Positions 4,792-28,642 of a DNA stretch of 28,642 bases are shown here, one piece after another. Where the stretch lies: the NCBI GenBank assembly GCA_964526125.1, contig CAZGKQ010000002.1, positions 1-28,642 on the forward strand. The letters are read 5' to 3'. Origin of the DNA: an uncultured Faecalibacterium sp. Its GTDB lineage: Bacteria > Bacillota > Clostridia > Christensenellales > Aristaeellaceae. A program made the position numbers and the translations under genes. Under the pieces are notes generated by a model that made no database searches, had not been told where the DNA came from, and worked only from the letters and a program-made list of their open reading frames with translations. The first letter of the stretch is position 1. The number at the start of each line of letters is the position of its first letter.

Positions 4792-4942
4792 CTGTTTCTT
4801 CCTCCTTTGACTTGGATCATGCGATGGCATCCATCGTCTTTCAGGGATTATGATACGCTTTTTATCTGGCGGCCGCGTGCCGCATGGATGACTGTCCGCT
4901 GAAGTTTTGGTGATGTGACGGTGATATTCTGTAAAGAAACTG

Positions 4943-4974
4943 AAAACAGCGACCCGACTTTTGTCGAATCGCTG
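4943..4974 (-). terminator. Intrinsic terminator-like hairpin upstream of the ABC ATPase gene
   Basis: Minus strand CAGCGA-TT-CGAC-AAAA-GTCG-GG-TCGCTG followed by TTTTCAGTTTCTTT. The G.U pairs orient it on the minus strand. Confidence 0.55.
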
Positions 4975-5040
4975 CATGGGGGGACATTTCAATGATTCAT
5001 TTTTCGTTTTTTCACATACAGTCAGAATCATCATCGGCCT

Positions 5041-5095
5041 CAAGCCGGGACATACCTTCGCCTTTCTTCAAAGACATGTCCCGGTTTTGCTTTTC
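5041..5095 (+). other. Plus-strand-oriented stem-loop with downstream T-rich tract
   Basis: AAGCCGGGACAT (5042-5053) pairs with ATGTCCCGGTTT (5076-5087), followed by TGCTTTTCC. No plus-strand gene lies upstream. Confidence 0.45.
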
Positions 5096-10841: not shown

Positions 10842-10952
10842 CTTGCTTCTTGCCTCCATCTGATCCCCATTCACCATCGGAAACCTGCGGTCAATGGGGA
10901 TAAATCATCCCATTCCCATGGGGAGCGGAATTTCACAGTTATCGCAATTTAC

Positions 10953-10981
10953 ATGGTAAATCAAACATCGCCACTTGTCAA
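10953..10981 (-). promoter_or_regulatory. sigma70-type promoter of the SdrD-B repeat gene
   Basis: TTGACA (10981-10976), 17 nt, TACCAT (10958-10953). Confidence 0.7.
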
Positions 10982-11025
10982 CCTTTCCAGCAGTTTTTTT
11001 ACATTTTCGACTCAATTTTTGCGCG

Positions 11026-12459: not shown

Positions 12460-13380
12460 TCAGTATACCATCTTTTCCGCGCTGTAGACATTGCGGAACT
12501 GGCTGGGCGTGCAGCCGCGAATGGCTCTGAAAACGCGGTTGAAGGTGGCGATGCTGCCAAAGCCTACGCGCAGCGCCACCTGCGTCACCGGCAGATCGGA
12601 CTGGCTGAGCAGCTCCGCCGCCATCGACACGCGCCGCGTGTTCAGGTACTGCGTGAAGGTGTTGCCCGTATGCCGGGTAAACATGCGGCTGAGGGTATAG
12701 CGGCTGAATCCGGCATAATCCGCCAGCGAATCCAGCGTAATGTCTTCGGCGTAGTTCTTGTTGACATATTCCAGCGCCCGGTTAAATGCATCCTCGCCGG
12801 AAATCCGGTTGATGGCGTTCATCTCCTCCCGGCTGGCAATGCGCGGCAGGTACTTTTCCCCCAGCAGCGCGTACATGTCCAGCAGACGCGCATAGCAGTG
12901 AAGATTGCGCAGCGTGGAGTAGCTCTCGTAAATCTTCACCAGTTCCATCAGCACCGCATGCACCTCCGCCGTCACCTCTTCCTCCCGGTTGAGATAAATC
13001 GTGCGCAGCATCAGGGCGCGCAGGGCGGAAAATTCCTTCATTGTGAACGCACCGTTCATCTCAAAGATGATGAGATACCGCGCATTGCCCTGATCCATTT
13101 TTAGCGCATGCGGTTCGCCCGGCGGAATAATCAGCACCTCGCCCTCGCGGACGAAGAACTTTTCCTTCTGCGTCGTGACCTGACACCCCCCCATTGTTGG
13201 CAGACAGATTTCCACCGCCGAATGATAGTGCATCTCATACATATCCGTAATCGCGCCGTACCATACGCGCACCGTCGCGTTCTTCTGATAAGTGATGAAT
13301 TCGCGTTCTCCCTTCATCACGCGGAATCCGCTGGCTGTCCTGGGGCGATCCAGTTCATCAATCAGCTGCCGGTTGTTCAT
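12460..13380 (-). CDS. AraC-family transcriptional regulator with N-terminal cupin (306 aa)
   Basis: MHYHSAVEI...GEVLIIPPGEPH cupin. C-terminal ITLDSLADYAGFSRYTLSRMF...VALRVGFGSIATFNRVF....GCTPSQFR double HTH. RBS GGAGG. Confidence 0.95.
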   Translation of the reverse strand: MNNRQLIDELDRPRTASGFRVMKGEREFITYQKNATVRVWYGAITDMYEMHYHSAVEICLPTMGGCQVTTQKEKFFVREGEVLIIPPGEPHALKMDQGNARYLIIFEMNGAFTMKEFSALRALMLRTIYLNREEEVTAEVHAVLMELVKIYESYSTLRNLHCYARLLDMYALLGEKYLPRIASREEMNAINRISGEDAFNRALEYVNKNYAEDITLDSLADYAGFSRYTLSRMFTRHTGNTFTQYLNTRRVSMAAELLSQSDLPVTQVALRVGFGSIATFNRVFRAIRGCTPSQFRNVYSAEKMVY

Positions 13381-13522: not shown

Positions 13523-13590
13523 TATAATATGGTTGAAAGTAAGCCGTTTTGCATCATCGTCCCGTTTTGCATGAGGCGATACGTTTTGCA
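13523..13590 (+). promoter_or_regulatory. -10 box and triple CGTTTTGCA direct repeat ahead of the uptake operon
   Basis: TATAAT at 13523-13528 with no consensus -35 at 17 nt. CGTTTTGCA starts at 13545, 13563 and 13582. Confidence 0.5.
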
Positions 13591-13631: not shown

Positions 13632-16535
13632 ATGGAGCGCTCGTTTGGCAGCAAGTACGGAAAATGGATCGCGGCCATCGTGGTCGTGCTGGCGCTGGTG
13701 CTATGGTTTGTCCTGTCATCCGGCGTTGAAAGCTACAAGGATAAGTATGAAGGCACCGACCTGAATACCAGCATCGGCGATATTGGCCGTGACAATACCT
13801 ACGCCCTGTATCTGCAAGCGCACGAAGACGCAGTGGATGCGACGCAGGACATTTCCGTGGACGTGACAGCAGTGCAGCCGGGCGAGGGCATCGAGCTGCG
13901 TGAGGAGGGCGTTTACACCGCCAATGGCTCCTCCGCCGTCTTCACCGTGAATGTTCCCGAATCCGGCTTCTATAACATTGCGCTGACCTACCTGACGGTG
14001 GAAGCGCGTGGTGTTGACCTGGAGCGCGAAATCCTCATCAACGGCCTCCTGCCCTTTGACGGTGCGGACACGATGACCTTCAGCCGCCTGTGGCATGACG
14101 GCGGTGAAGTGCGCCAGGACTCGCAGGGCAATGACATCCGCCCGTCGCAGACGGAAGTCTTCGACTGGCAGACCGCCTACTGCCGCGACGCGATGGGCTA
14201 CATCACCGAACCGTATCGCTTCTACTTTGAAGCCGGTGAAAACACCATCACCCTGAACGCCAACAGCGAGCCGATGATTCTTTCCGCCATGACGCTGACG
14301 GTGCCGCAGCAGATGCAGTCCTACGCCGACTACGCCGCTGCGCAGCCGCAGGAGAACAACGTCAGCGCCGATTATGAGCTGATTCTTCAGGGCGAGGACA
14401 GTTCGCTGCGTTCCTCCCCTTCCCTCTACGCTCGCTATGACCGTTCCTCTCCGGCCACCATCCCCTGCGACGTAAGCAAGACGGTGCTGAACTACATCGG
14501 CGGCGATGCCTGGCGCGATGCCGGACAGTGGATCGAATGGAGCTTCGAGGTTCCGGAAAGCGGCTGGTACAACATCACCATCAAGGGTCGTCAGACCTAC
14601 AACCGCGGCAGCGTTTCCAGCCGCATCCTCTACATCGACGGCCAGATTCCCTTTGCCGGCATGGAGAACGTCTCCTTCCCCTACAGCAGCACCTGGACGA
14701 TGAACACCCTCTCCGATGAGGAAGGCACGCCCTACCGCTTCTATCTGGAAGCAGGCAGCCACACCCTCCGCCTGGAAGCGACGCTGGGCGACATGGGTAC
14801 CATTCTCTCCGACATGGAAGAGAGCATCTACCGCCTGAACCAGATGTACCGCAAGCTGCTGGTGTTGACTGGCGTGAACCCCGACCGCTATCGTGACTAT
14901 CACCTCGATCAGGTTTACCCCGAAATCATTGAGGCGATGGAGCTGGAAAGCCGCCTGCTCTACAAGCTGGTGGACGACACCGTCGCCATCACCGGCCAGA
15001 AGTCCGACCGCATTGCGGTGGCGCAGACGCTGGCCGTGCAGCTGGAAAAATTCGTGGACGACTCCGCGAAAATCACCGAATCCTTCACCAACTTCAAGGA
15101 TAACATCACCTCTCTGGGTACTTCCATGCAGAGCATGCGCGAAGTCAAGCTGGACATTGACCTGATCGCCATCACGGCGGACGGCCACAGCGCCGAGCAG
15201 CCCTCGGAAAACTTCATCGACCGTGCGCTGCATGAAATCAAGTCCTGCATCACTTCCTATTTTGTGGACTACAACGCCCTGGGCGATGTCTATGAAGATT
15301 CTGAGGACGTGTTGGAAGTCTGGATTCTGACCGGTCGCGACCAGTCCACCGTTTTGAAGACGATGGTCGACGACACCTTCACCCCCACCTATGGCGTGAA
15401 GGTGAACGTCATGCTGGTTGACCCCAACGCCCTGCTGAACGCTGTCGTGGCCGGTAACGGCCCGGACGTGGTGATTTCCACCGACAGCTGGAACCCCGTC
15501 AACTATGCGCTGCGCCACGCGGTGGAAGACCTGAGACAGTTTGAAGACCTCGACACGGTGCTGGAGCAGTTCTATCCCAGTGCTTACGCTGCCTTCCAGT
15601 TCAACGATGGCCTGTACGCCCTGCCGGAGACGCAGATGTGCTCCGTGCTGTTCTACCGCAACGACATTCTGGAAGAATACGGCCTGGAAGTGCCGGAAAC
15701 GTGGGATGACCTGATCGCCATGCTACCCACGATTCAGGGCGCAAACATGTCCATCGGTATCCCCTACCCCGACATCACCGCACCGAACCTTTCTACTTAT
15801 TACTCCATGCTCTATCAACGCGGCGGCGCGCTCTATAATGAGGATGCCACGCATACCACCATCAACTCCGAGGTGGGCGTTCAGGCTTTCGAGCTTTACA
15901 CCAGCCTCTATAACGACTACGGTCTGCCCACGGTGTTCGACTTCGTGAGCCGCTTCCGTTCGGGCGAGATGCCGATCGGTATCTTCGACTACACCACCTA
16001 CAACACCCTGACCGTTTCCGCGCCGGAAATCCGCGGCCTGTGGGATATGGCCATCATGCCCGGCACGCTCGTCACCGCCGAGGACGGCACGACTTATGTT
16101 GACCACTCCGTGCATTCCCAGGGCGCGTGCTGCATGATGATCGCCACGGACAGCGAAACGACGAAGCAGAACGCCTGGAGCTTCATGAAGTGGTGGACCT
16201 CCACCGACGCGCAGGTGCGCTTTGGCCGCGAGATTGAAGCCGTTCTGGGTTCTTCCGCACGCTACGCCACGGCTAACATCGCCGCCATTGAACAGCTGGC
16301 CTGGTCTGAGGAGCAGCTGGCCGTCATTCGCGAGCAGATGACGTGGGCTGTGGGCTTCCGCGAGGTTGCCGGTGGCTACTACACCACGCGCCACATGACC
16401 AACGCCGTGCGCAAGGTCACCAACGACAAGACGGACGCGCGCGAAACGCTGCTGGATTACGCCCGTACCATTGACGAAGAAATCAACAAGAAGCGTCTGG
16501 AATTCGGTCTGCCGATCGATACCGAAACGCCCTGA
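13632..16535 (+). CDS. Giant membrane-anchored sugar-binding protein: TM, two CBM6/35-like beta-sandwiches, helical region, family-1 SBP domain (967 aa)
   Basis: RBS AAGGAGG and N-terminal TM (aa 12-28). Duplicated VPESG(F/W)YNI...PYRFY(F/L)EAG motifs. C-terminal SBP motifs GNGPDV, DGLYALP, YRNDILEEYGLEVPETWDDL, AWSFMKWW. Confidence 0.88.
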   Translation: MERSFGSKYGKWIAAIVVVLALVLWFVLSSGVESYKDKYEGTDLNTSIGDIGRDNTYALYLQAHEDAVDATQDISVDVTAVQPGEGIELREEGVYTANGSSAVFTVNVPESGFYNIALTYLTVEARGVDLEREILINGLLPFDGADTMTFSRLWHDGGEVRQDSQGNDIRPSQTEVFDWQTAYCRDAMGYITEPYRFYFEAGENTITLNANSEPMILSAMTLTVPQQMQSYADYAAAQPQENNVSADYELILQGEDSSLRSSPSLYARYDRSSPATIPCDVSKTVLNYIGGDAWRDAGQWIEWSFEVPESGWYNITIKGRQTYNRGSVSSRILYIDGQIPFAGMENVSFPYSSTWTMNTLSDEEGTPYRFYLEAGSHTLRLEATLGDMGTILSDMEESIYRLNQMYRKLLVLTGVNPDRYRDYHLDQVYPEIIEAMELESRLLYKLVDDTVAITGQKSDRIAVAQTLAVQLEKFVDDSAKITESFTNFKDNITSLGTSMQSMREVKLDIDLIAITADGHSAEQPSENFIDRALHEIKSCITSYFVDYNALGDVYEDSEDVLEVWILTGRDQSTVLKTMVDDTFTPTYGVKVNVMLVDPNALLNAVVAGNGPDVVISTDSWNPVNYALRHAVEDLRQFEDLDTVLEQFYPSAYAAFQFNDGLYALPETQMCSVLFYRNDILEEYGLEVPETWDDLIAMLPTIQGANMSIGIPYPDITAPNLSTYYSMLYQRGGALYNEDATHTTINSEVGVQAFELYTSLYNDYGLPTVFDFVSRFRSGEMPIGIFDYTTYNTLTVSAPEIRGLWDMAIMPGTLVTAEDGTTYVDHSVHSQGACCMMIATDSETTKQNAWSFMKWWTSTDAQVRFGREIEAVLGSSARYATANIAAIEQLAWSEEQLAVIREQMTWAVGFREVAGGYYTTRHMTNAVRKVTNDKTDARETLLDYARTIDEEINKKRLEFGLPIDTETP

Positions 16536-16558
16536 GCGAAAGGAGGAAGCGAATCACC

Positions 16559-17497
16559 ATGGCCACATTCCTGAAAAAGTATTTCATGCTCAGGAAGCGC
16601 AACACCATCATCGCCTGGGATAAGGCCAAGCACATGAAGTTCTGCTACGCCTTTCTGGCGCCCTATGCGATTCTGTTCCTGACGTTCTACATTCTCCCGA
16701 TGCTGACGTCCATCTACTATTCCTTCACCTACAACAACATTCTGGAACCGGCGCGCTTCATCGGCGCACAGAACTACATCACCCTGATTTTGAAGGACGA
16801 TGTGTTCCTGACGGCGGTGAAGAACACCTTCCTGCTGGCCGTGATTACAGGCCCTATCGGCTACATCATGTCCTTCGGCTTTGCCTGGCTGATTAACGAG
16901 CTGCCGCGCTGGATCCGCACCATCGCCGTGGTCATCTTCTATGCGCCCTCCATCGCCGGTAATGCCTACTACATCTTCTCCATCATCTTCCGTGGCGATG
17001 CTTACGGCTACCTGAACGCCATCCTGATGGATCTGGGCATCATCAATGCCCCCATCCTCTGGCTGACCAATCCGGATTACATCATGCCGGTGATTATCAT
17101 CGTCACGCTGTGGATGAGCATGTCCACCGGCTTCCTGTCCTTCGTGGCCGGTTTGCAGGGCGTTGACCGTGCCCAGTATGAGGCCGGTTATGTCGACGGC
17201 ATTCGCAACCGCTGGCAGGAGCTGTGGTACATCACCCTGCCCAACATGAAGCCCATGCTGATGTTCGGCGCGGTCATGTCCATCACGTCGGCCTTCGGCG
17301 TGTGCGACGTGCCGATGGCGCTGGCCGGTTTCCCCTCCACGGATTACGCCGCTCACACCGTCGTCACCCACCTGTTTGACTACGGCTTCACCCGTTTTGA
17401 AATGGGTTATGCATCCGCCATCGCCACGCTGCTGTTCCTGGTGATGATCCTGTGCAACAAGTTGATTCAGAGCGCACTGAGGAGGATCGGCACATGA
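16559..17497 (+). CDS. Carbohydrate ABC permease (MalF/UgpA-like), pair 1 (312 aa)
   Basis: YAFLAPY, FIGAQNY, EAA loop QYEAGYVDGI..RWQELWYITLP, FEMGYASAIA. Confidence 0.93.
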   Translation: MATFLKKYFMLRKRNTIIAWDKAKHMKFCYAFLAPYAILFLTFYILPMLTSIYYSFTYNNILEPARFIGAQNYITLILKDDVFLTAVKNTFLLAVITGPIGYIMSFGFAWLINELPRWIRTIAVVIFYAPSIAGNAYYIFSIIFRGDAYGYLNAILMDLGIINAPILWLTNPDYIMPVIIIVTLWMSMSTGFLSFVAGLQGVDRAQYEAGYVDGIRNRWQELWYITLPNMKPMLMFGAVMSITSAFGVCDVPMALAGFPSTDYAAHTVVTHLFDYGFTRFEMGYASAIATLLFLVMILCNKLIQSALRRIGT

Positions 17498-18444
17498 GTA
17501 CATATCCTGTAAGAGGCTATAAGGGGCCGGTCGGCCCTGACGGCACGCCGATTCAAGTGCCCAAGAAGGTGCAGAAGCTGGCGCAGAAATCGTCCATGAA
17601 ACACCGCAAGCCCAACCGCTCCCGTGTTGGCGACTTTCTGGTGGGGCTGCTGCTGTTCGTGGTCGCCTGCATGATGGCCTTTCCGCTGGTATTCGCCATT
17701 TCGTCTTCTCTGAAGCCGCTGGATGAGCTGTTCCGCTTTCCGCCGACGCTCTTTCCGCGCAATCCCACCCTGGACAACTTCTCCGACCTGCTGGTCACCA
17801 TGAGCCAGAGCTGGGTTCCCTTCTCCCGTTACATCACCAACACCGTGGTCATTACCGTTGTCGGTACGTTTGGCCATCTGCTGATTGCCTCGCTGGCGGC
17901 TTATGTGCTGGCGAAGTACGACTTCCCGCTGGGCAAAAAGTTCTTCTCCCTGGTCGTGACCGCCCTGATGTTCAACGGCTACGTCACCGCCATCCCGAAC
18001 TACCTGACCATGACGCACCTGCACATCGTCGATACGCACTGGGCGGTCATTCTCCCGGCTTTCGCCGCACCCATCGGCCTGTTCCTGATGAAGCAGTTCA
18101 TGGAAGGTCTGCCCACGTCGCTGATTGAATCCGCCAAGATTGACGGTGCGAAGGAATTGCGCATCTTCTGGCAGATCGTGATGCCCAACGTCAAGCCGGC
18201 CTGGCTGACGCTAATCATCTTCTCCGTCCAGAACCTGTGGAATTCCAAGGCTTCCACCGTCATTTACTCCGAGGCGCAGAAGACGCTTGTCTACGCCCTG
18301 CAACAGATTCAGGCCGGCGGCGTTGCGCGTACCGGTCAGGCCGCCGCGGTCACGGTGGTGGTCATGGCCGTGCCGATTGCAACCTTCATCCTCAGCCAGA
18401 GTCAGATTCTTGAAACCATGGCCACCTCCGGCCTGAAGGATTAA
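17494..18444 (+). CDS. Carbohydrate ABC permease (MalG/UgpE-like), pair 1 (316 aa)
   Basis: PTLDNF, FLMKQFMEGLPTSLIESAKIDGA EAA loop. Start at 17494 (RBS GAGGAGG, ATGA overlap). Confidence 0.93.
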   Translation: MSTYPVRGYKGPVGPDGTPIQVPKKVQKLAQKSSMKHRKPNRSRVGDFLVGLLLFVVACMMAFPLVFAISSSLKPLDELFRFPPTLFPRNPTLDNFSDLLVTMSQSWVPFSRYITNTVVITVVGTFGHLLIASLAAYVLAKYDFPLGKKFFSLVVTALMFNGYVTAIPNYLTMTHLHIVDTHWAVILPAFAAPIGLFLMKQFMEGLPTSLIESAKIDGAKELRIFWQIVMPNVKPAWLTLIIFSVQNLWNSKASTVIYSEAQKTLVYALQQIQAGGVARTGQAAAVTVVVMAVPIATFILSQSQILETMATSGLKD

Positions 18445-18456
18445 GCGAGAAAGGAC

Positions 18457-19971
18457 ATGTCGCAGATGAAAAGCATTTCTTTACGCCTGTGTGCCTGTCT
18501 GATGGCGGTTTGCCTCCTCGCTGCCCTGATCGGGACGAGTACGGCACTTGCCGCAGACGGCTATGATTACGCCTACACCTACACCTACGACTACTGGTCT
18601 GATCAGCGTCAGTCTCCTGACGCATATCGCACCAAAGCCGTGCTGACCAGCGCCTCTCTGGGGCTGGAAAAAGACTTCGTCGCCCCCAAGGGTCTGAACG
18701 TGCAGGGCGATGACATCTACATCGTCGATACGGGTAACAACCGCATCCTGCAAGTGACGCGCAGCGGCGAGGAATACACCCTCACGCGCATCATCGACAC
18801 CATTCAGGGAGCCGAACCGGCCACGCTGAATGCACCGCAGGACGTATTCGTCGCTGAAGACGGCACGCTCTACATCGCGGACACGAGCAACAACCGCATC
18901 CTCAAGGTGGATAAAGATCTGAACCTCCTGCTCACCTTCACCAAGCCGGAGGATACCACCTTCGACCAGGCTTCCGCCTTCCTGCCGACCAAGCTGGTGG
19001 CCGATACGTCAGGCCGTGTCTACTGTCTGGCGCAGAATGTCAACCGCGGCCTGATCAAGTACGAAGCCGATGCCACCTTCACCGGCTTCATCGGCGCGAG
19101 CGAGGTCAAGTACACCTGGTATGAGCTGATCTGGCGCATGATCTCCACCAAGGAACAGCGCGCCCAGCAGGAATCCTTCGTGCCGACGGAATACAACAAC
19201 ATTGCCATTGACAAGGACGGTTTCTTCTTCGTCGTGACCCAGACCTTCGATGCCAATGAGCTGATGTCCGGTCAGGCCAAGCCGATTCGCCGTCTGAACT
19301 CCATCGGCACCAACATCCTGATTGAAAACGGCCTTGAGCCGCCCATCGGCGACCTGCAATGGGTCGGCGGCAATGAGAACATCACCAACAGCGGCCCGTC
19401 CAAATTTGTGGACGTGACGGTGCTGGACAACGGCATCTACTCCGTCATTGACAAAACGCACAACCGCATCTTCTCCTACGACAAGCAAGGGAACCTGCTG
19501 TGGGCGTTCGGCGGTGTGGGCAACATGGACGGTTACTTCCTCACCCCGGCGGCGCTGGAACATCAGGGCTACGACCTGCTGATTCTGGACTCGCAGGAAT
19601 GCGCCGTAACCATCATGACCCCCACGGAATACGGCCAGCTGGTCTACACGGCCACCGAGCAGTATCAGAGCGGCGACTACACCGGTTCTTCCGACTCCTG
19701 GCGCGAGGTCATGAAGCGCAACGGCAACTACGACCTGGCCTACATCGGCATTGGCCGTGCGCTGCTTCAGCAGAAGCAGTACAAGGAGGCCTGCGACTAC
19801 TTCGCCATGGCGCGTGACAGCCGCAACTACTCCGAGGCGTTCCGCTACTACCGCTCCGAGCTGGTGGAGGAGAACATCGGCTGGATCTTCGGCGTTCTGG
19901 CCGTCGCCGTGTGTCTGCCGCTGCTCATCGGGCGGATTCGCAAAATCAAGATGGAGGTGGATAACGCATGA
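18457..19971 (+). CDS. NHL-repeat beta-propeller plus TPR protein, signal peptide and C-terminal TM anchor (504 aa)
   Basis: Signal peptide ending ALA|A. NHL motifs APKGL..DIYIVDTGNNRIL and APQDVFV..DGTLYIADTSNNRIL. TPR-like AYIGIGRALLQQKQYKEACDYF. C-terminal TM WIFGVLAVAVCLPLLIG plus basic tail. Confidence 0.82.
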   Translation: MSQMKSISLRLCACLMAVCLLAALIGTSTALAADGYDYAYTYTYDYWSDQRQSPDAYRTKAVLTSASLGLEKDFVAPKGLNVQGDDIYIVDTGNNRILQVTRSGEEYTLTRIIDTIQGAEPATLNAPQDVFVAEDGTLYIADTSNNRILKVDKDLNLLLTFTKPEDTTFDQASAFLPTKLVADTSGRVYCLAQNVNRGLIKYEADATFTGFIGASEVKYTWYELIWRMISTKEQRAQQESFVPTEYNNIAIDKDGFFFVVTQTFDANELMSGQAKPIRRLNSIGTNILIENGLEPPIGDLQWVGGNENITNSGPSKFVDVTVLDNGIYSVIDKTHNRIFSYDKQGNLLWAFGGVGNMDGYFLTPAALEHQGYDLLILDSQECAVTIMTPTEYGQLVYTATEQYQSGDYTGSSDSWREVMKRNGNYDLAYIGIGRALLQQKQYKEACDYFAMARDSRNYSEAFRYYRSELVEENIGWIFGVLAVAVCLPLLIGRIRKIKMEVDNA

Positions 19972-20633
19972 CGCTTCTTTCCAAAGTAACCGATAAGCAG
20001 AAGTGGCATCGCCTGCTTTCCTCCCTCAAGTACTCACTCTACGTCATCTTCCATCCCTTCGATGGCTTCTGGGATTTGAGCCGTGAAAAGCGTGGATCGC
20101 TGGCAGCAGCCAACATCATCGTGTTCCTGGTGCTGCTGGTGCGTCTGCTGAAGATGCAGTTCACGCCCTTCCTGTTCATGAACGTGTATTGGCCGAAAGT
20201 CAATATCCTTCAGCAGTGCCTGTCCGTCCTGCTGCCGCTGATTTTCTTCGTCGCCGGTAACTGGGGACTGACCACGCTGTTTGAAGGCAAAGGCACGTTC
20301 AAGGACGTTTACATTGCCACCTGCTACGCGCTGACCCCCTATGTGATCATTCAGGCGATCATGATCGTGCTGTCCAACGGCATCACCGTCAACGAAGGCT
20401 CGTTCTACTATGTGCTGGACGGTCTCTCCCTCATTTGGAGCGGCGCACTGATTATCAGCGGCATGATGCAGACGCATGACTACTCCTTTGGCAAGACGCT
20501 GCTTTTCACCATCATCACGCTCTTCGCCATGGTCGTGATCATCTTCCTGCTGCTGCTGTTCTTCTCCCTGGTGGGCGACGGCATCGGCTACTTCATCTCC
20601 CTGTACAAAGAAATCCTCTTCCGCCTGTATTAA
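19968..20633 (+). CDS. YIP1-like integral membrane protein (221 aa)
   Basis: IFHPFDGFW, GKGTFKDVY...YALTPY, and 5-6 hydrophobic segments. RBS GGAGG and ATGA overlap with the NHL gene. Confidence 0.78.
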   Translation: MTLLSKVTDKQKWHRLLSSLKYSLYVIFHPFDGFWDLSREKRGSLAAANIIVFLVLLVRLLKMQFTPFLFMNVYWPKVNILQQCLSVLLPLIFFVAGNWGLTTLFEGKGTFKDVYIATCYALTPYVIIQAIMIVLSNGITVNEGSFYYVLDGLSLIWSGALIISGMMQTHDYSFGKTLLFTIITLFAMVVIIFLLLLFFSLVGDGIGYFISLYKEILFRLY

Positions 20634-20651
20634 CGAAAGGAGAGAACATAC

Positions 20652-23234
20652 ATGAAACGGCGCATCACTGTGCGCATCGTGCTGGGTGTGATTCTTCTCC
20701 TGGCACTGGCGCTGTTGACGAACTACGTCATCATTCCCCTGTTTGACACCTCCGAAGAAACAGAAGGCCACAACGTCCCCCTCTACGGCTACACGGCTCC
20801 GGAAACGGAGATGGTCATGGAGAACGACATCCTTCGCTTCGAGCTGGATCCGGAAACGACCCATTTCACCCTGACCGATAAGCGAACCGGTCACGTCTGG
20901 TACTCCTCTCCCCTGGCAGCAGACAGCGATCCCATCGCCCTGCCGGTGGAAAAGAACAAGCTCAACTCCACCATGACCCTCACCTACTCCACGTCCACGG
21001 GCATGACCACGCTCTTCACCTCGAATGAGCACAGCGTGACCAACGATGTGTATGAGGTGGTCATGCAGGAGGACGGCTCCGTCCGCCTGAACTACTCCGT
21101 TGGCCGTCTGCAACGCTCCTATGCGATCCCGACTGCCATTACCGCCGATCGCATGCAGGTCTATCTGGAGAAGATGACCACGAAGCAGCAGAAGGCCATG
21201 AAGGAGTACTACCGCGAATACAACATCGACAAGCTGCGCAAGAACGATAATAAGGAAGAGCTTCTGGCCACCTATCCCGACCTGGCCGAACAGCACGTCT
21301 GGGTGCTGCGCGACGGCACGAAGGATTATCAGAAGGCGTATGCCGAAACCTACTTCGCCGAGGCCGGTTACACCGCCGAGGATCTGGAGTATGACAACAG
21401 CCGCATTGTGCAGAAGGAGAACACGACCGCCAAGGCCGTCTTCGATGTCTCCATCATCTTCCGGCTGGAAGGCAACGACCTGGTGGTGGAAGTGCCGCTG
21501 GACGACCTGGCCTACGATGTGGACTATCCGCTGACTGCCCTGACCCTGCTGCCCTCCTTCGGCGCGGGCGGCACGGATGATGAAGGCTTCATACTCGTCC
21601 CTGACGGCAGCGGCGCCCTCATCAATTTCAACAATGGTAAGCTGAAGCAGAATGCCTACTACGCCAACCTCTACGGCTGGGACTGGGCATCCATCCGCAC
21701 GCAGATCACCAACGAAACGCGCATCAACTTCCCGGTTTTCGGCATCTCGAACGGGGACGGCGCATTCGTCTGCATTCTGGAAGATGGCGCGGCCTGGGCC
21801 GGCATCAACGCCGACATTTCCGGCCACCTGACCTCCTACAACACCGTCAGCGCCACCTATTCCATCGTTCACGGCGATGCCTACGATGTTTCCGAGCGAA
21901 CGAACACCAGCGTGTACATGTTTGAAACGGAACATCCCACCGGCACGATTCGCCAGCGCTATCGTTTCCTGACCGACACCGGCTACATGGACATGGCGGC
22001 TTCCTACCGCGATTACCTGACGACCCTCTATCCGGATTTCGCCGCCCAGACGGTCGATGCGGACGCTGCGGTGAATGTGGAATTCATTGGCGCAATTGAC
22101 AAGGTGCAGCAGGTGGCCGGTATCCCCACCAGCGTCCCAATCGCCATGACGACTTACGAACAGGCGACGGAGCTGCTGCGCGAACTGGTGCAGCGCGGTC
22201 TGCCGAACCTCACCATCCGCTACAGCGGTTGGATGAACGGCGGCATGAACCAGAAGCTGCTTAAGAAGGTGAAGCTCATCAGCGAGCTTGGTTCGGAAAG
22301 CGACTTCAAGGAGCTGACCCAGACGGCGGCCAACGCCAACATCCCCCTCTATCTGGACGGCATGATGTCCTTCGCGTATGACAGCGACCTGATGGACGGC
22401 TTCCTGGGCTATCGCGATGCGGCGCGCTTCACCACCCGTGAGCAGGCCAACATTCCCGTCTACAGCACCATCTGGTACGGCCCGGAGGATGAAGACGATC
22501 GCAAGTCCTACTACCTGATTAAGCCTGCACTGGCCATGGAAAACGTTGATACGCTGTCCAGCACCGCTGCTGACTACAACGCCAACGTTTCCTTCCGCGA
22601 CATTGGCTACATGCTCTCTTCGGACTACGACGCCAAGGATCACACCACCCGTGAGGAAGTCCTTGACCTTCAGGTCGAAAAGCTTTCTTCCCTGCGCGCT
22701 GGTGGCCAGAGCGTCATGATCCGCCAGGGCAACGATTACGCGGCTGTCTGGTCGAATATCATCACCGATATGGACTTTGATGGCGCGCAGTACTCCATCA
22801 TCGACGAGTACGTTCCCTTCTACACCGCCGCGCTTCACAGCCGCGTCACCTACACGGGCGCATCCCTGAACCTCGCCGACGACGCGGAAGAGCTGCTCCT
22901 GCGCAGCGCCGAAATGGGTGCCAGCCTTCAGTACACGCTCTTCGCCAGCAGCGTCTATGAGCTTCAGGATTCCTTCTACTCGGAATACTACGGCGCGGAT
23001 GCTTCTCTGGTGCTGGACGACATGACAGCCCAGGTCAAGCAGTACAGTGAGACGCTCAGTGGCATCTTCGATCAGGAAATGGTCGGCCACGAGCGCAACG
23101 GTAACGTCACCATTACGACCTACGAAAACGGCACGCAGGTTTACGTCAACTACGGCTATGTCGATGTGGAGCTGAACGGCGTGACCGTTCCGGCTCGCAG
23201 CTACACGGCCACCACACAGGAGGTGATTGAATGA
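20652..23234 (+). CDS. DUF5696-like membrane-anchored extracellular protein, possibly glycoside-hydrolase related (860 aa)
   Basis: N-terminal TM. MENDILRF....HF...DKRTGHVWYS.P, GFILVPDGSGALINF, PVFGI, YSGWMNGG, and C-terminal TTYENGTQVYVNY. Assignment rests on recalled motifs and context next to YIP1/NHL. Confidence 0.7.
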   Translation: MKRRITVRIVLGVILLLALALLTNYVIIPLFDTSEETEGHNVPLYGYTAPETEMVMENDILRFELDPETTHFTLTDKRTGHVWYSSPLAADSDPIALPVEKNKLNSTMTLTYSTSTGMTTLFTSNEHSVTNDVYEVVMQEDGSVRLNYSVGRLQRSYAIPTAITADRMQVYLEKMTTKQQKAMKEYYREYNIDKLRKNDNKEELLATYPDLAEQHVWVLRDGTKDYQKAYAETYFAEAGYTAEDLEYDNSRIVQKENTTAKAVFDVSIIFRLEGNDLVVEVPLDDLAYDVDYPLTALTLLPSFGAGGTDDEGFILVPDGSGALINFNNGKLKQNAYYANLYGWDWASIRTQITNETRINFPVFGISNGDGAFVCILEDGAAWAGINADISGHLTSYNTVSATYSIVHGDAYDVSERTNTSVYMFETEHPTGTIRQRYRFLTDTGYMDMAASYRDYLTTLYPDFAAQTVDADAAVNVEFIGAIDKVQQVAGIPTSVPIAMTTYEQATELLRELVQRGLPNLTIRYSGWMNGGMNQKLLKKVKLISELGSESDFKELTQTAANANIPLYLDGMMSFAYDSDLMDGFLGYRDAARFTTREQANIPVYSTIWYGPEDEDDRKSYYLIKPALAMENVDTLSSTAADYNANVSFRDIGYMLSSDYDAKDHTTREEVLDLQVEKLSSLRAGGQSVMIRQGNDYAAVWSNIITDMDFDGAQYSIIDEYVPFYTAALHSRVTYTGASLNLADDAEELLLRSAEMGASLQYTLFASSVYELQDSFYSEYYGADASLVLDDMTAQVKQYSETLSGIFDQEMVGHERNGNVTITTYENGTQVYVNYGYVDVELNGVTVPARSYTATTQEVIE

Positions 23235-24127
23235 TCGGCAAGCGTTTGTCCATCCGCACCCGTCGTGCGATTTCCGGCTATCTCTTCATCCTGCCGTTCA
23301 TCATCGGCTTCCTCTGCTTCATGCTGCTGCCGCTGATTGACTCCTTCTGGATGAGCCTGTGCAACGTGGAAGTCACGGCCGGTCAGGGGTTCAAAACCAC
23401 CTACATCGGCCTGAGCAACTACATCAAGGCCTTCACCATCGACCCGGAATTCAACCAGATGCTTCTGGAAGAGACCGGTGTGATGGTCACGCACACACTG
23501 GCGATTCTGGTTGTCTCCTTCGTCATTGCCATCGTGCTGAATCAGGAATTCAAGGGGCGCGCCTTTGTCCGTGCGATCTTCTTCCTGCCCGTGATTCTGT
23601 CCAGCGGCGTGCTGCTGGGTCTGGAAACGGACAACTCCCTGATGTCCGGCATGCAGGACATGATTCAGGAAACCACCACCTTCACCCTGTCGGATTCGCT
23701 GATGAACATCCTGAAGCTGACGGGTCTGGGCGGCGACCTGCTGGACGTGGTCTTCTCGCTGGTGGATGAGCTGTATGACATCGTCATGGCCAGCGGCATC
23801 CAGATCATCGTCTTCCTCTCCGGATTGCAAAACGTCCCCCAGAGCCTTTACGAGGCGGCGGACGTGGAAGGTTGCTCCAAGTGGGAAGCGTTCTGGACGA
23901 TCACCTTCCCGATGGTTTCTCCCCTGCTGATCGTCAACGTCATCTACACCATCATCGACTTCTTCATGAAGACTGACAGCGAAATCATGGAGAAGATCAG
24001 CGAAGAAATCCTGCGGTTCAACTACGGCTTCTCCTCGGCCATGGCCTGGATTTACTTTGCCGTAGCCATCCTGATGATTGCAGTTTCCGCCTTGATTCTG
24101 AAGGGAGTGGTAAGTACCGATGAGTAA
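23231..24127 (+). CDS. Carbohydrate ABC permease (MalF-like), pair 2 (298 aa)
   Basis: GYLFILPFIIGF, IGLSNY, LSGLQNVPQSLYEAADVEG...WEAFWTITFP, YGFSSAMAWIYF. ATGA overlap. Confidence 0.93.
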   Translation: MIGKRLSIRTRRAISGYLFILPFIIGFLCFMLLPLIDSFWMSLCNVEVTAGQGFKTTYIGLSNYIKAFTIDPEFNQMLLEETGVMVTHTLAILVVSFVIAIVLNQEFKGRAFVRAIFFLPVILSSGVLLGLETDNSLMSGMQDMIQETTTFTLSDSLMNILKLTGLGGDLLDVVFSLVDELYDIVMASGIQIIVFLSGLQNVPQSLYEAADVEGCSKWEAFWTITFPMVSPLLIVNVIYTIIDFFMKTDSEIMEKISEEILRFNYGFSSAMAWIYFAVAILMIAVSALILKGVVSTDE

Positions 24128-25136
24128 GAATACTGCGGCGCATGCCCACCCCAGTGAAAGCTTCTGGGTTCGCAACCGGAAGTCCGGCGGCTACCTGCTG
24201 CGCAAGGTTGTTCGCCGCAAGGGTTATCAGCTGCTGCGCTTCCTGCTGCTGTTCGGATTGTGCTTCATGATTATTCAGCCGCTGCTGGGCAAGCTGAGCG
24301 TCTCCTTCATGGAGGAGCGCGACCTGTACGACTCCACGGTCATCTCCATTCCGCGCCACCTGACGACGGAAAACTACGAGCTGGCCGCCAGCAAAACGCT
24401 GCTGAACTACGGCACGACCTTCACCAACACGCTGTTTGTTTCCTGCTGGGTCTCCCTGCTGCAAATCGCGGCGTGTACGCTGGTTGGTTATGGCTTTGCG
24501 CGGTTTGACTTCCCGTTCAAGAAGTTCTGGTTCATGGCGGTTATTCTCACCGTCATCATTCCGCCGCAAACCATTTCCTCCTCGCTGTATCTGCACTTCA
24601 ACTTCTTCGACATTCTGGGCATCTTCACGGCGATTACCGGCGCTCCGCTGAACCTGCGCGGCTCGGCCGTTCCCTACGCGCTGATGTCGGCCACCTGCAT
24701 GGGTCTGAAAAACGGCCTGTACATCTACATGATCCGCCAGTTCTTCTCCGGCATTCCCAAGTCGCTGGAGGAGGCGGCGTATGTGGACGGCTGCAGCACC
24801 TTCAAGACCTTCTGGCGCGTCATTCTGCCGGAAGCCGTGCCGATTCTGGTGTCCTGCTTCCTGTTTGCCTTCGTGTGGCAGTGGACGGACACGTTCTACT
24901 CCAAGATGTTCCTGGGCAACACGAAATTGCTGAGCATTGAAGCGTCCACCATCGCCGACCGACTGAACAGCTATGTGTCCGTTCAGCTGGGTCTGGCCAG
25001 CGGCGCTTCCGTGGGCTATCAGCAGCAGATGGTTTCCACCGGCACGCTGATGCTGGTCGCACCGCTGCTGGTGCTGTACCTGTTCGCACAGCGTTCCTTC
25101 GTGGAATCCATCGCAGCCAGCGGCATCAAGGGATAA
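24120..25136 (+). CDS. Carbohydrate ABC permease (MalG-like), pair 2 (338 aa)
   Basis: GYGFARFDFPFK, RQFFSGIPKSLEEAAYVDG EAA loop, QRSFVESIAASGIKG. 8-nt overlap with the previous gene. Confidence 0.93.
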   Translation: MSKNTAAHAHPSESFWVRNRKSGGYLLRKVVRRKGYQLLRFLLLFGLCFMIIQPLLGKLSVSFMEERDLYDSTVISIPRHLTTENYELAASKTLLNYGTTFTNTLFVSCWVSLLQIAACTLVGYGFARFDFPFKKFWFMAVILTVIIPPQTISSSLYLHFNFFDILGIFTAITGAPLNLRGSAVPYALMSATCMGLKNGLYIYMIRQFFSGIPKSLEEAAYVDGCSTFKTFWRVILPEAVPILVSCFLFAFVWQWTDTFYSKMFLGNTKLLSIEASTIADRLNSYVSVQLGLASGASVGYQQQMVSTGTLMLVAPLLVLYLFAQRSFVESIAASGIKG

Positions 25137-25170
25137 TCCCCCTGATGCCCCGGCTCCCCTACTCTCTCGC

Positions 25171-25197
25171 TTCTTAGCCCCCATGATGGGGCAAGAA
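25171..25197 (+). other. Intergenic stem-loop 5' of the second SBP gene
   Basis: TTCTT(A)GCCCC-CATGAT-GGGGCAAGAA, just before the AAGGAGG RBS. Confidence 0.6.
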
Positions 25198-25218
25198 AAT
25201 AAAAAGGAGGTACCAAAC

Positions 25219-26616
25219 ATGAAACGGTATCTGGCTCTGTTCCTGTCTCTGGTGATGATCCTCTGCGCGCTGCCCGCAGCGTTCGCGGAAGACGTCGAGA
25301 ACCCCTACGAGGATCAAGGCGTCGTCATCTATCGTGATGCTGACGGCAACGTCATCGACCTGGGCGGCATGGAAATCATCGTCGCCGACTGGTGGTCCAC
25401 CGACTGGCACGACGACGAACCCACCACGGATGCTGGTGAAGCCACCTACGACTACCGCACCTGGCTGGAAGAGACCTACAACTTCACGATCGTGCAGAAG
25501 AATGTCACGACGTGGGGCGACTCTCCCTCCGACTTCACCAACTTCGCCACCACCGGCGGCGACGAGAACTATGTGTGGATTCTGCGCGCTGACGCTGCGC
25601 TGGCTCCCTACAAGGCCGGCCTGTTCTACGACCTGTCCACCCTGGACTGCCTGAACTTCTCCGACGAGAAGTGGAACGAGACGACCGCCAGCCTGTACAC
25701 CAAGGACGGCGACGTCTACGCGATGCGTCCTGAGAAGGCCGAACCGCGCAAGGGCGTGTTCTTCAACTATCGTCTGCTGTCCGAGGCCGGTATCGACCCC
25801 GAATCCATCTACGACATGCAGGCCGACGGCACCTGGACCTGGGAAGCTTTCGAAGAACTGTGCGAAAAGCTGACCCGTGACACCGACAACGATGGCGTGA
25901 CCGACCGTTATGCCATGATGTCCTTCTCCTCTCACCTGCTGCCCGCTGCGGCCGTCTCCAATGGTGCCGGCTTCGTCATGGTGGACGAAAATGGTCTGTA
26001 CTACAACGGCGCCGAGACCGATGCCTTCCTGGAGGCCATGAACTGGGTCATCGACCTGATCGGCAAGTACGAAATGAAGGCTCCGGAAGGCGCGAACTGG
26101 GACTACTTCCAGACGGCCTTCATCAATGGTGAAGTTGCGCTGCAGGTGCATGAAGAATACTTCGTGTCCAGCCTGCAGGATATGGAAGACGACTTCGGCT
26201 TCGTGTTCTTCCCCAAGGGACCCCAGTCTGAAACCTACCTGTTTGCTCCCAGCGACAACGTGATGGTCATCCCGGCCTGCTACGACGAAGAACGTGCCTG
26301 GAAGATCGCTTTCGCCTACAACCTGTTCACCAACCCCACCCCCGGCTATGGCGAGACCGACGACTGGAAGACCGACTACAAGAAGCTGTTCCGTGACGAG
26401 CGCTCTGTGGACGACACCCTGGCCATGATGCGTGATCCGGTGCACCAGTTCACCTGGTACTCCGACATGATCACCGGCTACGACCTGGGCAACCAGTACA
26501 TCTGGAACGTGTACGCGCTGGCTGAGACTCCGGCTGAGAAGGCGGAATCCATGCGTGGCACCTGGCAGGCGTACCTCGACGAAGCCAATGGCATCGGCGT
26601 TACCACTGCTGAGTAA
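25219..26616 (+). CDS. Family-1 extracellular solute-binding protein (465 aa) with non-lipoprotein signal peptide
   Basis: Start at 25219 after AAGGAGG. MKRYLALFLSLVMILCALPAAFA|ED. Motifs GVFFNYRLL, GTWTWEAF, DTDNDGVTD loop, AFINGEVA, DDFGFVFFPKGP. Confidence 0.9.
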   Translation: MKRYLALFLSLVMILCALPAAFAEDVENPYEDQGVVIYRDADGNVIDLGGMEIIVADWWSTDWHDDEPTTDAGEATYDYRTWLEETYNFTIVQKNVTTWGDSPSDFTNFATTGGDENYVWILRADAALAPYKAGLFYDLSTLDCLNFSDEKWNETTASLYTKDGDVYAMRPEKAEPRKGVFFNYRLLSEAGIDPESIYDMQADGTWTWEAFEELCEKLTRDTDNDGVTDRYAMMSFSSHLLPAAAVSNGAGFVMVDENGLYYNGAETDAFLEAMNWVIDLIGKYEMKAPEGANWDYFQTAFINGEVALQVHEEYFVSSLQDMEDDFGFVFFPKGPQSETYLFAPSDNVMVIPACYDEERAWKIAFAYNLFTNPTPGYGETDDWKTDYKKLFRDERSVDDTLAMMRDPVHQFTWYSDMITGYDLGNQYIWNVYALAETPAEKAESMRGTWQAYLDEANGIGVTTAE

Positions 26617-26669: not shown

Positions 26670-26732
26670 GGGCGGATAACGAACCGCTGCGGGCGACGTT
26701 ATCCGCCCTTACTTTACCTTCTTTTGCCTTTT
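26670..26732 (+). terminator. Intrinsic terminator of the uptake operon
   Basis: Perfect 12-bp stem GGGCGGATAACG (26670-26681) / CGTTATCCGCCC (26697-26708), followed by T-rich TTACTTTACCTTCTTTTGCCTTTT. Confidence 0.7.
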
Positions 26733-26768: not shown

Positions 26769-28642
26769 ATGCAGACAAGTGGTTTTCCTTTTCCTCCGCT
26801 GCGTGCGGATGAAGTTCCGTCCCTGAAAGCTTTCTATCAGGACGATTTCCGCATCGGTGCGGCCATTGTCCCTCAGTGGCTGAACGATGCAGGCAAGGCA
26901 GCAGCCCTGCGCAGGCACTTTTCCTCCCTTTCGGCGGAAAACGTCGCCAAGCCGGAGTCGCTGCTCAGCCGCGCCGCCACCATCGCCGCCGGGAGCAACA
27001 CGCGCGCCGTGTTCACCCTCACGCCCATGCGCACGCTGATGGACTGGGCGGCAGAAAACGGCCTGACCGTGCGCTTCCATGTGCTGGTGTGGCACAATCA
27101 GACGCCGCGCTGGTTCTTTACCGAAGGCTGGTCTGACGCACCGGATGCGCCGCTGGTCAGCCGCGAAGTGATGCAGGAGCGCATGCGCCATTACATCTGC
27201 GATGTGATGCGCGAGGTCAACGCCGCCTGGCCGGGGCTGGTGTACGCGTGGGATGTGGTGAATGAGGCCATCGAGCCGGATCATCACGCCCCCAACTGCT
27301 TCCGCACCAAATCGTGCTGGTATCAGATTTTCGGGGAAGACTTCGTGCCCGAGGCCTTCCGCATCGCCCGAGCCTGCCGCGTCAACGGGCAGAAGCTGTT
27401 CTACAACGACTTCAACGTCGCCCAGCCGGAGAAGACCCCGTGGGTCTACCAGCTGGTCAAACGCCTGAACGATGAAGGACTGATTGACGGCGTTGGTTTC
27501 CAGACGCACATTGGGCTGGATTACCCCTCCTTCGCCGACTACGAACAGGCCATCCGCGATTTTGCTGCGCTGGGGCTGACCATCGAAAGCACGGAAATGG
27601 ACATCCGCGTGGACGACGCGTCTCCGCTGGCGCAGATGCGTCTGGCCGTGCGCTACCGCGACTACTTCCGGATGATGCGCCGTCTCCGCCGGGAGGGGCT
27701 GCCGATTGACTCCATCACCCTCTGGGGACTGACGGACGATCGCTCCTGGCTGCTGAACTGGAAGGGCACGGGCAATCCGCTGCTCTTTGACGGCATGCTG
27801 CGTGCCAAGGCCGCCTACTGGGGCGCGATGCTGGACGAGCGGATTCCGGAAACGGCAGACCATCTGCCCGATCCGCCGCTGACGCTGGAAGCGCCCATCA
27901 AGCCGCTGGAGGAACACAATCCGGTTGTCACCCACGTTTTCGGTGCTGACCCGTGGGTGATGGTCTGGCAGGATCGTGCCTACCTCTATCTAACCGCCGA
28001 CGCGCCGGATTACAGCGATCAGGGAAGCATTCTGGAAAATCACTACGGTCACATTCATTCGCTGCGCTGCTTCTCTTCCGCCGATCTGGTCAACTGGACG
28101 GATCACGGCGAAATTCCGGCAGCCGGCCTGGATGGATTGGCCAAATGGGCACGCAATTCCTGGGCACCCTGCGCCGCCCACAAGACGATTGACGGACAGG
28201 AGCATTTCTTCCTGTATTTCGCCGACAGCGGCAACGGCATCGGCGTGCTGGAAGCCCTCTCCCCCACCGGTCCGTTCCGCGATCCGCTGGGACAACCGCT
28301 CATCAGCCGGAAAACGCCGCTGTGCGACAGCGTCAAATGGCTGTTTGACCCGGCCGTGCTGGTCGATGAGGACGGACAGGGCTATCTGTACTTTGGCGGC
28401 GGCGTGCCGGAAGGTCTGGAAGCAGCTCCGGGAACGGGACGCTGCGTCCGCCTGGGCGCGAATATGATTTCGCTGGCGGAAAATCCCGTTGTGCTGGATG
28501 CGCCCTATCTGTTTGAGGATTCCGGCATCAACCGGGTTGGCAGCCACTACGTTTATTCTTACTGCACCAACTTCGATGTTCGCGACGCTTCCCTCCCCTT
28601 CGCCAGCGGCGAAATCTGCACCATGATTTCCGATTCGCCCCT
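26769..28642 (+). CDS. GH10 xylanase - GH43 (XynD-like arabinoxylan arabinofuranohydrolase) fusion, 3' partial (>624 aa), no signal peptide
   Basis: Translated by hand from ATG 26769 (RBS GGGGAGG), open to the window end. GH10: ENVAKP, RFHVLVWHNQTP, YAWDVVNE (27249-27266), KLFYNDFN, DGVGFQTH, STEMD, ITLWG. GH43: FGADP (27939-27953), NSWAP, WLFDPAV, YLYFGGG, YLFEDSG, YSYCTNF. Confidence 0.92.
   Translation, partial: MQTSGFPFPPLRADEVPSLKAFYQDDFRIGAAIVPQWLNDAGKAAALRRHFSSLSAENVAKPESLLSRAATIAAGSNTRAVFTLTPMRTLMDWAAENGLTVRFHVLVWHNQTPRWFFTEGWSDAPDAPLVSREVMQERMRHYICDVMREVNAAWPGLVYAWDVVNEAIEPDHHAPNCFRTKSCWYQIFGEDFVPEAFRIARACRVNGQKLFYNDFNVAQPEKTPWVYQLVKRLNDEGLIDGVGFQTHIGLDYPSFADYEQAIRDFAALGLTIESTEMDIRVDDASPLAQMRLAVRYRDYFRMMRRLRREGLPIDSITLWGLTDDRSWLLNWKGTGNPLLFDGMLRAKAAYWGAMLDERIPETADHLPDPPLTLEAPIKPLEEHNPVVTHVFGADPWVMVWQDRAYLYLTADAPDYSDQGSILENHYGHIHSLRCFSSADLVNWTDHGEIPAAGLDGLAKWARNSWAPCAAHKTIDGQEHFFLYFADSGNGIGVLEALSPTGPFRDPLGQPLISRKTPLCDSVKWLFDPAVLVDEDGQGYLYFGGGVPEGLEAAPGTGRCVRLGANMISLAENPVVLDAPYLFEDSGINRVGSHYVYSYCTNFDVRDASLPFASGEICTMISDSP

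Follow-up and report, generated by a model that had tools for sequence, protein, structure and literature searches.

Bacillota are major fibre fermenters of the gut and rumen. Models of glycan uptake in this phylum stop at a binding protein plus an ATP-binding cassette (ABC) permease, as in the CUT1 importers (TC 3.A.1.1; MalEFGK2, UgpBAEC and MsmEFG-type systems). The MsmEFG-type systems of Firmicutes share an orphan MsmX/MsmK ATPase. At the level of gene clusters, a Gram-positive polysaccharide utilisation locus (gpPUL) is defined, in the wording quoted in PMC13543919, by at least one glycoside hydrolase (GH), a transport system and a regulator (Sheridan et al. 2016, PMC5320581). For Bacillus, the Yip1-family protein YknW has been described as an accessory subunit that modulates the assembly of the ABC transporter YknXYZ (PMC4887032). 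Here we describe a nine-gene cassette in a stretch of 28,642 nucleotides (the window), which is contig C2 of a 1.76-Mb metagenome-assembled genome (MAG; 67% complete, ~58% G+C). The cassette combines two CUT1-type importers with a beta-propeller protein, a Yip1-domain protein and a DUF5696 protein. We lean towards reading the window as an operon-like glycan-uptake cassette, the xylan/arabinoxylan-associated copy of a modular Bacillota system, working in the way proposed below.

The nine genes are all on the + strand. The first encodes substrate-binding protein 1 (SBP1, 13632..16535), a membrane-tethered binding protein of 967 aa with a Pfam SBP_bac_1 match at residues 575-861. It is followed by permease 1 (16559..17497, UgpA/MalF-like) and permease 2 (17494..18444, UgpE/MalG-like), both with a BPD_transp_1 match and an EAA loop. 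Next come a secreted protein with an NHL beta-propeller and tetratricopeptide repeats (TPR; 18457..19971, Pfam NHL and TPR), whose C-terminal transmembrane (TM) helix is at residues 469-487, a Yip1-domain protein with five TM segments (19968..20633) and an N-terminally anchored DUF5696 protein (20652..23234). The second permease pair, permease 3 (23231..24127, UgpA/MalF-like) and permease 4 (24120..25136, MalG-like), again has BPD_transp_1 matches and EAA loops. The last gene encodes SBP2 (25183..26616), a CUT1 binding protein of conventional size (477 aa, SBP_bac_1) with a signal peptide, and its likelier start is at 25219. ATGA overlaps are found at 17494, 19968 and 23231, and permeases 3 and 4 overlap by 8 nt at 24120. 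The remaining gaps are 23, 12 and 18 nt, with 46 nt before SBP2 (82 nt when counted from 25219). A GGAGG-type ribosome site precedes all nine genes except at the SBP2 start 25183, and a good one serves the start at 25219. A terminator-like hairpin with a 12-bp stem and a T-rich tail (26670..26708, +) was read in the sequence 3' of SBP2. A look-up for evidence of expression turned up no sequencing run for the window. The preliminary description of this DNA had listed nine co-oriented genes in this order, separated by gaps of 23 nt or less or by overlaps up to the last binding protein, with two permease/SBP sets around three non-ABC membrane-anchored proteins. The open reading frames (ORFs), their Pfam identities, the exact junctions and a hydropathy scan all agree with that account.

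The four permeases match PF00528 and UgpA/UgpE/MalG models, each of them keeps the EAA-type ATPase-coupling motif, and both binding proteins match PF01547 (MalE-type SBP_bac_1). These matches show two complete, predicted CUT1-type importer membrane modules, each made of a MalF-like and a MalG-like permease and each with its own binding protein. In the AlphaFold2 (AF2) model of SBP1 (predicted local distance difference test, pLDDT, 90), a TM helix at residues 13-31 is followed by beta-sandwiches at ~70-225 and 245-385, a four-helix bundle at 388-503 and a MalE-like domain at 508-957. The hydropathy scan likewise gives a single N-terminal TM. Foldseek matches the model to oligosaccharide-binding proteins (E = 1e-21), and the best matches of the MalE-like domain are binders of cyclo-isomalto-, cycloalternan-, beta-1,2-gluco- and malto-oligosaccharides. 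The beta-sandwiches are strongly conserved among 58 homologues and give weak leads to carbohydrate-binding modules (CBMs) of families 6 and 35 (a Pfam CBM35 match at E = 3e-4; PDB 2vzp at E = 0.08; Atlas scores of 0.81-0.85). The model therefore supports SBP1 as a probable membrane-tethered binding protein that carries two CBM6/35-like beta-sandwiches on a helical stalk. Relatives of SBP2 carry a lipobox in 51 of 64 loci, and the SBP2 of the window has a signal peptide without a lipobox. NCBIfam holds no model for Yip1, DUF5696 or SBP2. None of the nine genes encodes an ATPase. Two orphan UgpC/MalK-type ATPase genes are found elsewhere in the MAG (contigs C6 and C84), one of them between a GH3 gene and dltA, and we infer their pairing with this operon. 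An ATPase outside the operon together with orphan MalK-type genes fits the shared-ATPase arrangement of MsmX-dependent systems.

The same arrangement recurs within the MAG and well beyond it. Four DUF5696 genes are present in the MAG, with the same gene order on contigs C2, C4, C16 and C11, and the copies are 25-60% identical. We collected 80 related loci by a pattern scan with one genome per species and classified their ORFs with profiles made from the MAG's own paralogs; these loci were picked by likeness to the window DUF5696 and are therefore not an unbiased sample. They come from Paenibacillus, Gorillibacterium, Lachnospiraceae, Roseburia, Acetatifactor, Oscillospiraceae, Faecalibacterium and Acholeplasmataceae/Mariniplasma. 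Wherever the contig permits, all 80 have the order SBP1, permease 1, permease 2, propeller, Yip1, DUF5696, permease 3, permease 4. SBP2 is located after permease 4, or before SBP1 in Paenibacillus and some Acholeplasmataceae. DUF5696 and permease 3 may overlap by 4 nt in 34 of 79 loci, and propeller and Yip1 in 19 of 76. This bears out the statement in the preliminary description that the gene order recurs in fibre-degrading Bacillota. As a less biased check, we searched a sample of 201 genomes of the phylum: the 11 genomes with strong DUF5696 matches, from seven families, are precisely those that have Yip1 matches and strong propeller/TPR matches. Four genomes of 2.2-3.0 Mb in this sample have 10 to 14 Yip1 copies each.

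Gene content was compared in 23 cassettes from five other genomes. The full gene order is present in 11 of them, and at least seven have a short form with only propeller~Yip1, DUF5696, permease 3, permease 4 and SBP2; the remaining five are interrupted by contig ends. The short cassettes have 3-8 kb of upstream sequence without an SBP1 or permease match, and multi-copy genomes have about one SBP1 N-terminal region for every two Yip1 matches. The short cassettes suggest that the propeller, Yip1 and DUF5696 trio is tied to permeases 3/4 and SBP2, and that SBP1 with permeases 1/2 forms an optional second importer. As far as gene content can tell, the evolutionary core is propeller/Yip1, DUF5696, permeases 3/4 and SBP2. 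Thus the expectation that the accessory genes accompany both permease pairs held in part: the trio is always found with the second pair, and SBP1 with the first pair is absent from at least seven of the 23 cassettes, in two multi-copy genomes. Two genomes (G108 and G171) have SBP1 without DUF5696 or Yip1, but in them the locus ends at a contig end inside permease 1.

Some individual loci show irregularities. SBP2 starts more than 150 nt past permease 4 in most of the 80 loci, all other junctions being tight, and may have its own promoter or processing site. The C4 cassette begins inside permease 1, and a fifth SBP1-type gene of the MAG (C25, 10643-12229), near the end of a 13.9-kb contig, is probably its missing front. 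In the sole cassette of the complete genome G132 (C1, 5862-8718), permease 2 is split by an insert of ~1.6 kb, possibly a mobile element. Runs of N in the MAG contigs create false long ORFs, at 17655-19694 on C11 and at about 13055-14269 on C4. The first of these gave an apparent fusion of permease 4 to GH30, which we rejected: the ORF spans masked N, and the GH30 carries a signal peptide of its own, so there are two genes.

The neighbours of the cassette are mostly enzymes of glycan breakdown. In the window, a GH27 gene (11082..12329, −; Pfam Melibiase_2 and Melibiase_C) and a gene of an AraC-family regulator (12460..13380, −; Pfam HTH_18, E = 8.5e-26, and AraC_binding) lie upstream, the latter divergent to the operon. 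A GH10-GH43 fusion (26769..28642, +; Pfam GH10, E = 2e-78; GH43, E = 1e-21) lies downstream and runs off the contig. Both enzymes have no signal peptide and should be cytoplasmic. The preliminary description had noted that only hydrolases without signal peptides flank the operon, which is correct for GH27 and GH10-GH43 here and turns out, as far as the contig reaches, to be a trait of this copy and not of the system, since other copies adjoin lipoprotein GH26-CBM35 mannanases and secreted GH30/GH43 proteins. Three direct CGTTTTGCA repeats (13545..13590, +), spaced by 18-19 nt, lie in the region that separates SBP1 from the divergent AraC gene, 40-85 nt ahead of SBP1; from the sequence reading they are a candidate operator. 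A related sequence, GTTTTCGCA, is at 13416, and these may all be operator sites.

Among the 116 nearest neighbours of the 80 loci, GH26 was found 32 times, CBM35 28, LacI 26, GH5 nine, GH130 eight, CBM65 five and NamZ four. The GH26-CBM35 proteins of Lachnospiraceae loci have lipoprotein signal peptides, which suggests surface-anchored endo-mannanases. Of the paralogous cassettes of the MAG, the C4 copy adjoins a CE2 esterase and a protein with three CBM65 modules, the C16 copy a GH43 and the C11 copy a secreted GH30. Three short cassettes of one genome (G054) have in their upstream regions a GH106-like rhamnosidase, an apiosidase-like enzyme, sugar-acid enzymes (DHDPS-family and PdxA-like) and an AraC regulator, which suggests that these cassettes may serve pectin or rhamnogalacturonan II (RG-II)-type substrates. 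For the window copy, which has GH10-GH43, GH27 and AraC beside it, the simplest reading is a putative arabinoxylan-type version. Taken together, gene order and neighbours support the cassette as a conserved unit probably tied to glycan breakdown.

We propose the following mechanism for the window. SBP1 would capture longer chains and deliver them to permeases 1/2. The propeller-TPR/Yip1 pair would form a membrane platform adjoining the second importer, where DUF5696 would trim or debranch captured oligosaccharides at the membrane surface and SBP2 would pass the products to permeases 3/4. A shared ATPase would power both importers, GH10-GH43 and GH27 would finish the imported oligosaccharides in the cytoplasm, and the divergent AraC regulator would control the operon.

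For the platform, the most direct evidence is gene fusion. In the split form of the window, the hydropathy scan of the propeller protein shows a signal peptide that looks cleavable and, at the C-terminus, a helix, and the Yip1 protein matches PF04893 (E = 2.3e-14) over profile positions 2-172 of 173 with five hydrophobic segments. In six genomes of the 201-genome sample, propeller and Yip1 are encoded for most copies by a single ORF of 700-840 aa, and the fused examples we fetched consist of a signal peptide, propeller/TPR, one helix and then the five-helix Yip1 domain. Such fusion indicates that the two proteins act together; judging from it, propeller and Yip1 are one functional unit. It also suggests a topology for the split form, in which propeller and TPR are outside, the C-terminal helix crosses inward and the N-terminal tail of Yip1 is cytoplasmic. 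A deviating copy, perhaps truncated or frameshifted, is found in the C16 cassette (10322-10993), where the propeller protein has only 223 aa, with NHL repeats but without TPR or TM, and the Yip1 encoded by the next ORF is extended at its N-terminus.

The main rival to the proposed uptake mechanism concerns what this unit does. The window may hold two ordinary, independent CUT1 importers, with propeller/Yip1 as an assembly or stability factor that handles no glycan, and with DUF5696 as a co-regulated, tethered glycosidase. YknW, with YknXYZ, is a precedent for such a factor (PMC4887032). The conserved polar motifs of Yip1 are in the N-terminal tail and in loops, mostly in segments predicted to be cytoplasmic, as would suit this rival. 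It also gains from the unconserved TM anchors, and the complex prediction for propeller and Yip1 lent contact no support; both are taken up below. Against it, the best-conserved parts in 66 propeller homologues are the propeller and TPR, with the C-terminal helix not well conserved; conservation of the extracellular parts is odd for a pure membrane chaperone. The strict gene order and overlaps across distant lineages also speak against this rival. We consider the assembly-factor explanation rather unlikely, and retain the uptake mechanism with a propeller/Yip1 platform.

The DUF5696 protein matches PF18952 (E = 6e-180) with 600 bits, compared with a cut-off of 25.6, over profile positions 2-612. 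A search of 1.84 billion representatives gave 4513 clusters of relatives at E <= 0.001. An AF2 model built from an alignment of 125 sequences, which share 22-54% identity, has a mean pLDDT of 94.7 and shows a GH129-like (beta/alpha)8 barrel. The top two Foldseek matches are solved GH129 enzymes, ZgGH129 (5opq, E = 4e-31) and NagBb (5wzr, E = 5.5e-24), followed by GH101, GH31 and GH36. In VIA-align, the model reaches Z = 29.2 with NagBb (5wzn), over 574 residues, and Z = 28.5 with ZgGH129 (5opq). Comparison with Swiss-Prot models points to the same glycosidase families, and among the protein-atlas neighbours some DUF5696 clusters also bear GH101/GH129 Pfam domains. A DUF5696 family profile finds the GH129 sequences of the PDB with E = 4e-13, through flanking barrel segments only. 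PF18952 is the only Pfam match of the window protein at E <= 0.01, with none to GH129 or GH101. As the fold agrees with GH129 and the sequence falls outside the family, we file the protein as GH129-like.

Several polar residues of DUF5696 are candidates for an active site. Asp344, Glu377, Asp658, Arg667, Asp718, Glu754 and His813 are each kept in at least 90% of the 125 sequences, with Asp658 in 116 and Asp718 in 114 of them. In the model, Asp658 follows barrel strand 4 and Asp718 follows a later strand. The 60-residue spacing between them is like that of the Asp/Asp pairs in GH27, GH31 and GH36. Asp650, in an amylase-like 'FRD' motif, was also considered as nucleophile and set aside, as no more than 56 of the 125 sequences have Asp there; the preferred candidate is therefore Asp658. 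The paralog on C11 (14157-16766), the most diverged in the MAG, has Ala at position 718 and may be an inactive or re-tooled copy. The hydropathy scan gives a single N-terminal TM, and by the positive-inside rule DUF5696 should face outward. An outward-facing, GH129-like fold with conserved acidic residues makes it reasonable that, as first suggested, the machine possibly clips its polymer at the surface.

Alternatively, DUF5696 could lack catalytic activity and act as a glycan clamp or lectin that keeps oligosaccharides close to the importer. It would explain why the same family serves very different glycans and why Asp718 is absent in some members, and it fits the low sequence identity to GH129 (just 13-18%) as well as the lack of a Pfam GH129 or GH101 match. 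However, five acidic residues (Asp344, Glu377, Asp658, Asp718 and Glu754) are kept at the level given above across sequences as divergent as these, and such conservation is usual for an active enzyme family with variable specificity. We regard the inactive clamp as improbable and continue with DUF5696 as a putative trimming enzyme.

Two further explanations fare worse. The propeller-TPR/Yip1 pair could be a transmembrane sensor that reports extracellular glycan to a regulator. NHL propellers are sensor domains in some bacterial kinases, and an AraC or LacI gene usually adjoins the cassette, but neither the split nor the fused form has an output domain of the kinase, cyclase or DNA-binding type, and the neighbouring regulators are of cytoplasmic sugar-sensing types, which makes a sensor very improbable. 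It is just as hard to believe that the cassette recycles the cell's own surface glycopolymers instead of dietary glycan, for although a few cassettes adjoin NamZ exo-muramidase genes, the neighbours are mostly plant-fibre enzymes (GH26, GH5, GH130, GH10, GH43, CBM65 and GH106), and wall-less Acholeplasmataceae carry the cassette too.

A stronger form of our proposal is that propeller-TPR/Yip1 and DUF5696 dock on the second importer. They would then make a stable 'utilisome' of the cytoplasmic membrane of monoderms, which couples capture and trimming to ABC import and is re-specified up to 14 times per genome, as are Sus-like systems in Bacteroidota. We hold this tentatively and find it doubtful at present. 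Several observations weigh against the proposed mechanism in either form. For a physical complex, gene fusion argues for propeller with Yip1, and the support extends no further than this pair. A complex prediction with propeller residues 370-504 and Yip1, run without controls, scored 0.01, below the mark, and speaks neither for nor against contact. SBP1, DUF5696 and the propeller protein show no sequence conservation in their TM anchors, which agrees better with plain tethers than with specific helix packing. HMMER alignments of DUF5696 to GH129 cover only residues 50-93, 428-565 and 799-855, so Asp658 and Asp718 are candidates only, and ~9% of the family, including the C11 paralog, have no Asp718. 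Lastly, GH129-like folds normally cut alpha-linkages, yet mannan, xylan, pectin and peptidoglycan are all among the targets of the enzymes next to the cassette, so that no single trimming role is easy to assign. The preliminary description had gone as far as a monoderm counterpart of the SusCD utilisome, which binds polymer at the surface and imports large, decorated oligosaccharides for breakdown in the cytoplasm. What stands of this is a conserved, glycan-linked unit with a tethered SBP1, a probably outward-facing GH129-like DUF5696 and the cytoplasmic GH10-GH43 and GH27; the joint complex and the parallel with SusCD do not carry over in full, the former being restricted to propeller-Yip1 and the latter to analogy.

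The rest of the window includes a separate cluster on the − strand (52-5043 and 5979-10877), with an ABC-2 ATPase and permease, a GldG-like ABC_transp_aux protein and a DUF4340 protein. It is followed by a secreted SdrD-B/CarboxypepD_reg repeat protein of 1632 aa and is unrelated to the cassette.

Searches of the literature found no published description of the cassette, of DUF5696, or of Yip1 or NHL proteins joined to sugar ABC transporters, and the first impression that no mechanistic description was known holds. In a September 2026 review of bacterial glycoside transporters (PMC13543919), the terms NHL, DUF, MsmX, 'accessory' and Yip1 are all absent. The cassette is nevertheless widespread, being present in 11 of the 201 sampled genomes and also in Paenibacillus and the wall-less Acholeplasmataceae. 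It reaches 10-14 copies in genomes of 2-3 Mb, beside enzymes for mannan, xylan, xyloglucan-type glucan, pectin and peptidoglycan. The high copy number and the enzyme neighbours suggest that it is probably a main route of glycan acquisition in those organisms. With the Yip1-propeller unit, the Yip1 domain would have its second known role in bacteria, and DUF5696, if active, could represent a new glycoside hydrolase family, subject to a check against the CAZy database. These ideas can be tested in cultivable carriers such as Paenibacillus lautus and P. lactis, and should be of high interest for the glycobiology of gut and rumen Bacillota.

We compared the cassette with known systems. The SusCD utilisomes of Bacteroidota (White et al. 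2023, cited in PMC13543919) are alike in functional logic, in that the genes of the transporter are accompanied by those of glycan-binding proteins and a glycosidase at the surface. They are also alike in having many substrate-specific paralogous copies per genome. The cassette differs in having no outer membrane, TonB-dependent barrel, SusD or shared ancestry, and no TonB-dependent SusC barrel or SusD domain was detected in the 19 window proteins scanned. The resemblance is one of analogy and not of membership.

YknWXYZ of Bacillus is alike in that a bacterial Yip1 membrane protein is tied genetically and functionally to an ABC transporter (PMC4887032). It is different in that YknYZ is an exporter, of the MacB type, and works with a membrane-fusion protein, whereas the window has type-I importers and no membrane-fusion protein was found in it; moreover, the Yip1 of the cassette carries, or is fused to, an extracellular propeller-TPR. 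Among glycosidases, DUF5696 shares with GH129 (NagBb alpha-N-acetylgalactosaminidase, 5wzn; ZgGH129/DagB 3,6-anhydro-D-galactosidase, 5opq and 8rzk) an N-terminal beta-sandwich, the (beta/alpha)8 barrel and a C-terminal beta domain, with Z scores of 27-29 over 570-584 residues in VIA. It differs by ~200 extra residues, including a helical insert at ~165-260, by an N-terminal membrane anchor and by its obligate operon context beside ABC permeases. GH101, GH36 and GH31 are more distant relatives in fold.

The transport part itself is familiar. Each half of the cassette has the MalE-like binding protein and the MalF/UgpA-like and MalG/UgpE-like EAA permeases of CUT1 importers, and the ATPase is encoded elsewhere, as in MsmX-dependent systems. 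Unlike those importers, the cassette fixes two importers in one operon around three non-ABC membrane proteins, and one of its binding proteins is a TM-tethered SBP of 967 aa with two CBM-like modules and a helical stalk. The window also has what defines a gpPUL, with GH10-GH43 and GH27 as hydrolases, the ABC modules as transport system and AraC as regulator; the definition, as quoted, is silent on accessory surface proteins, which the cassette has. Both the CUT1 importer and the gpPUL are known kinds, and what is new, with no published account found, is the accessory module that the cassette adds to them.

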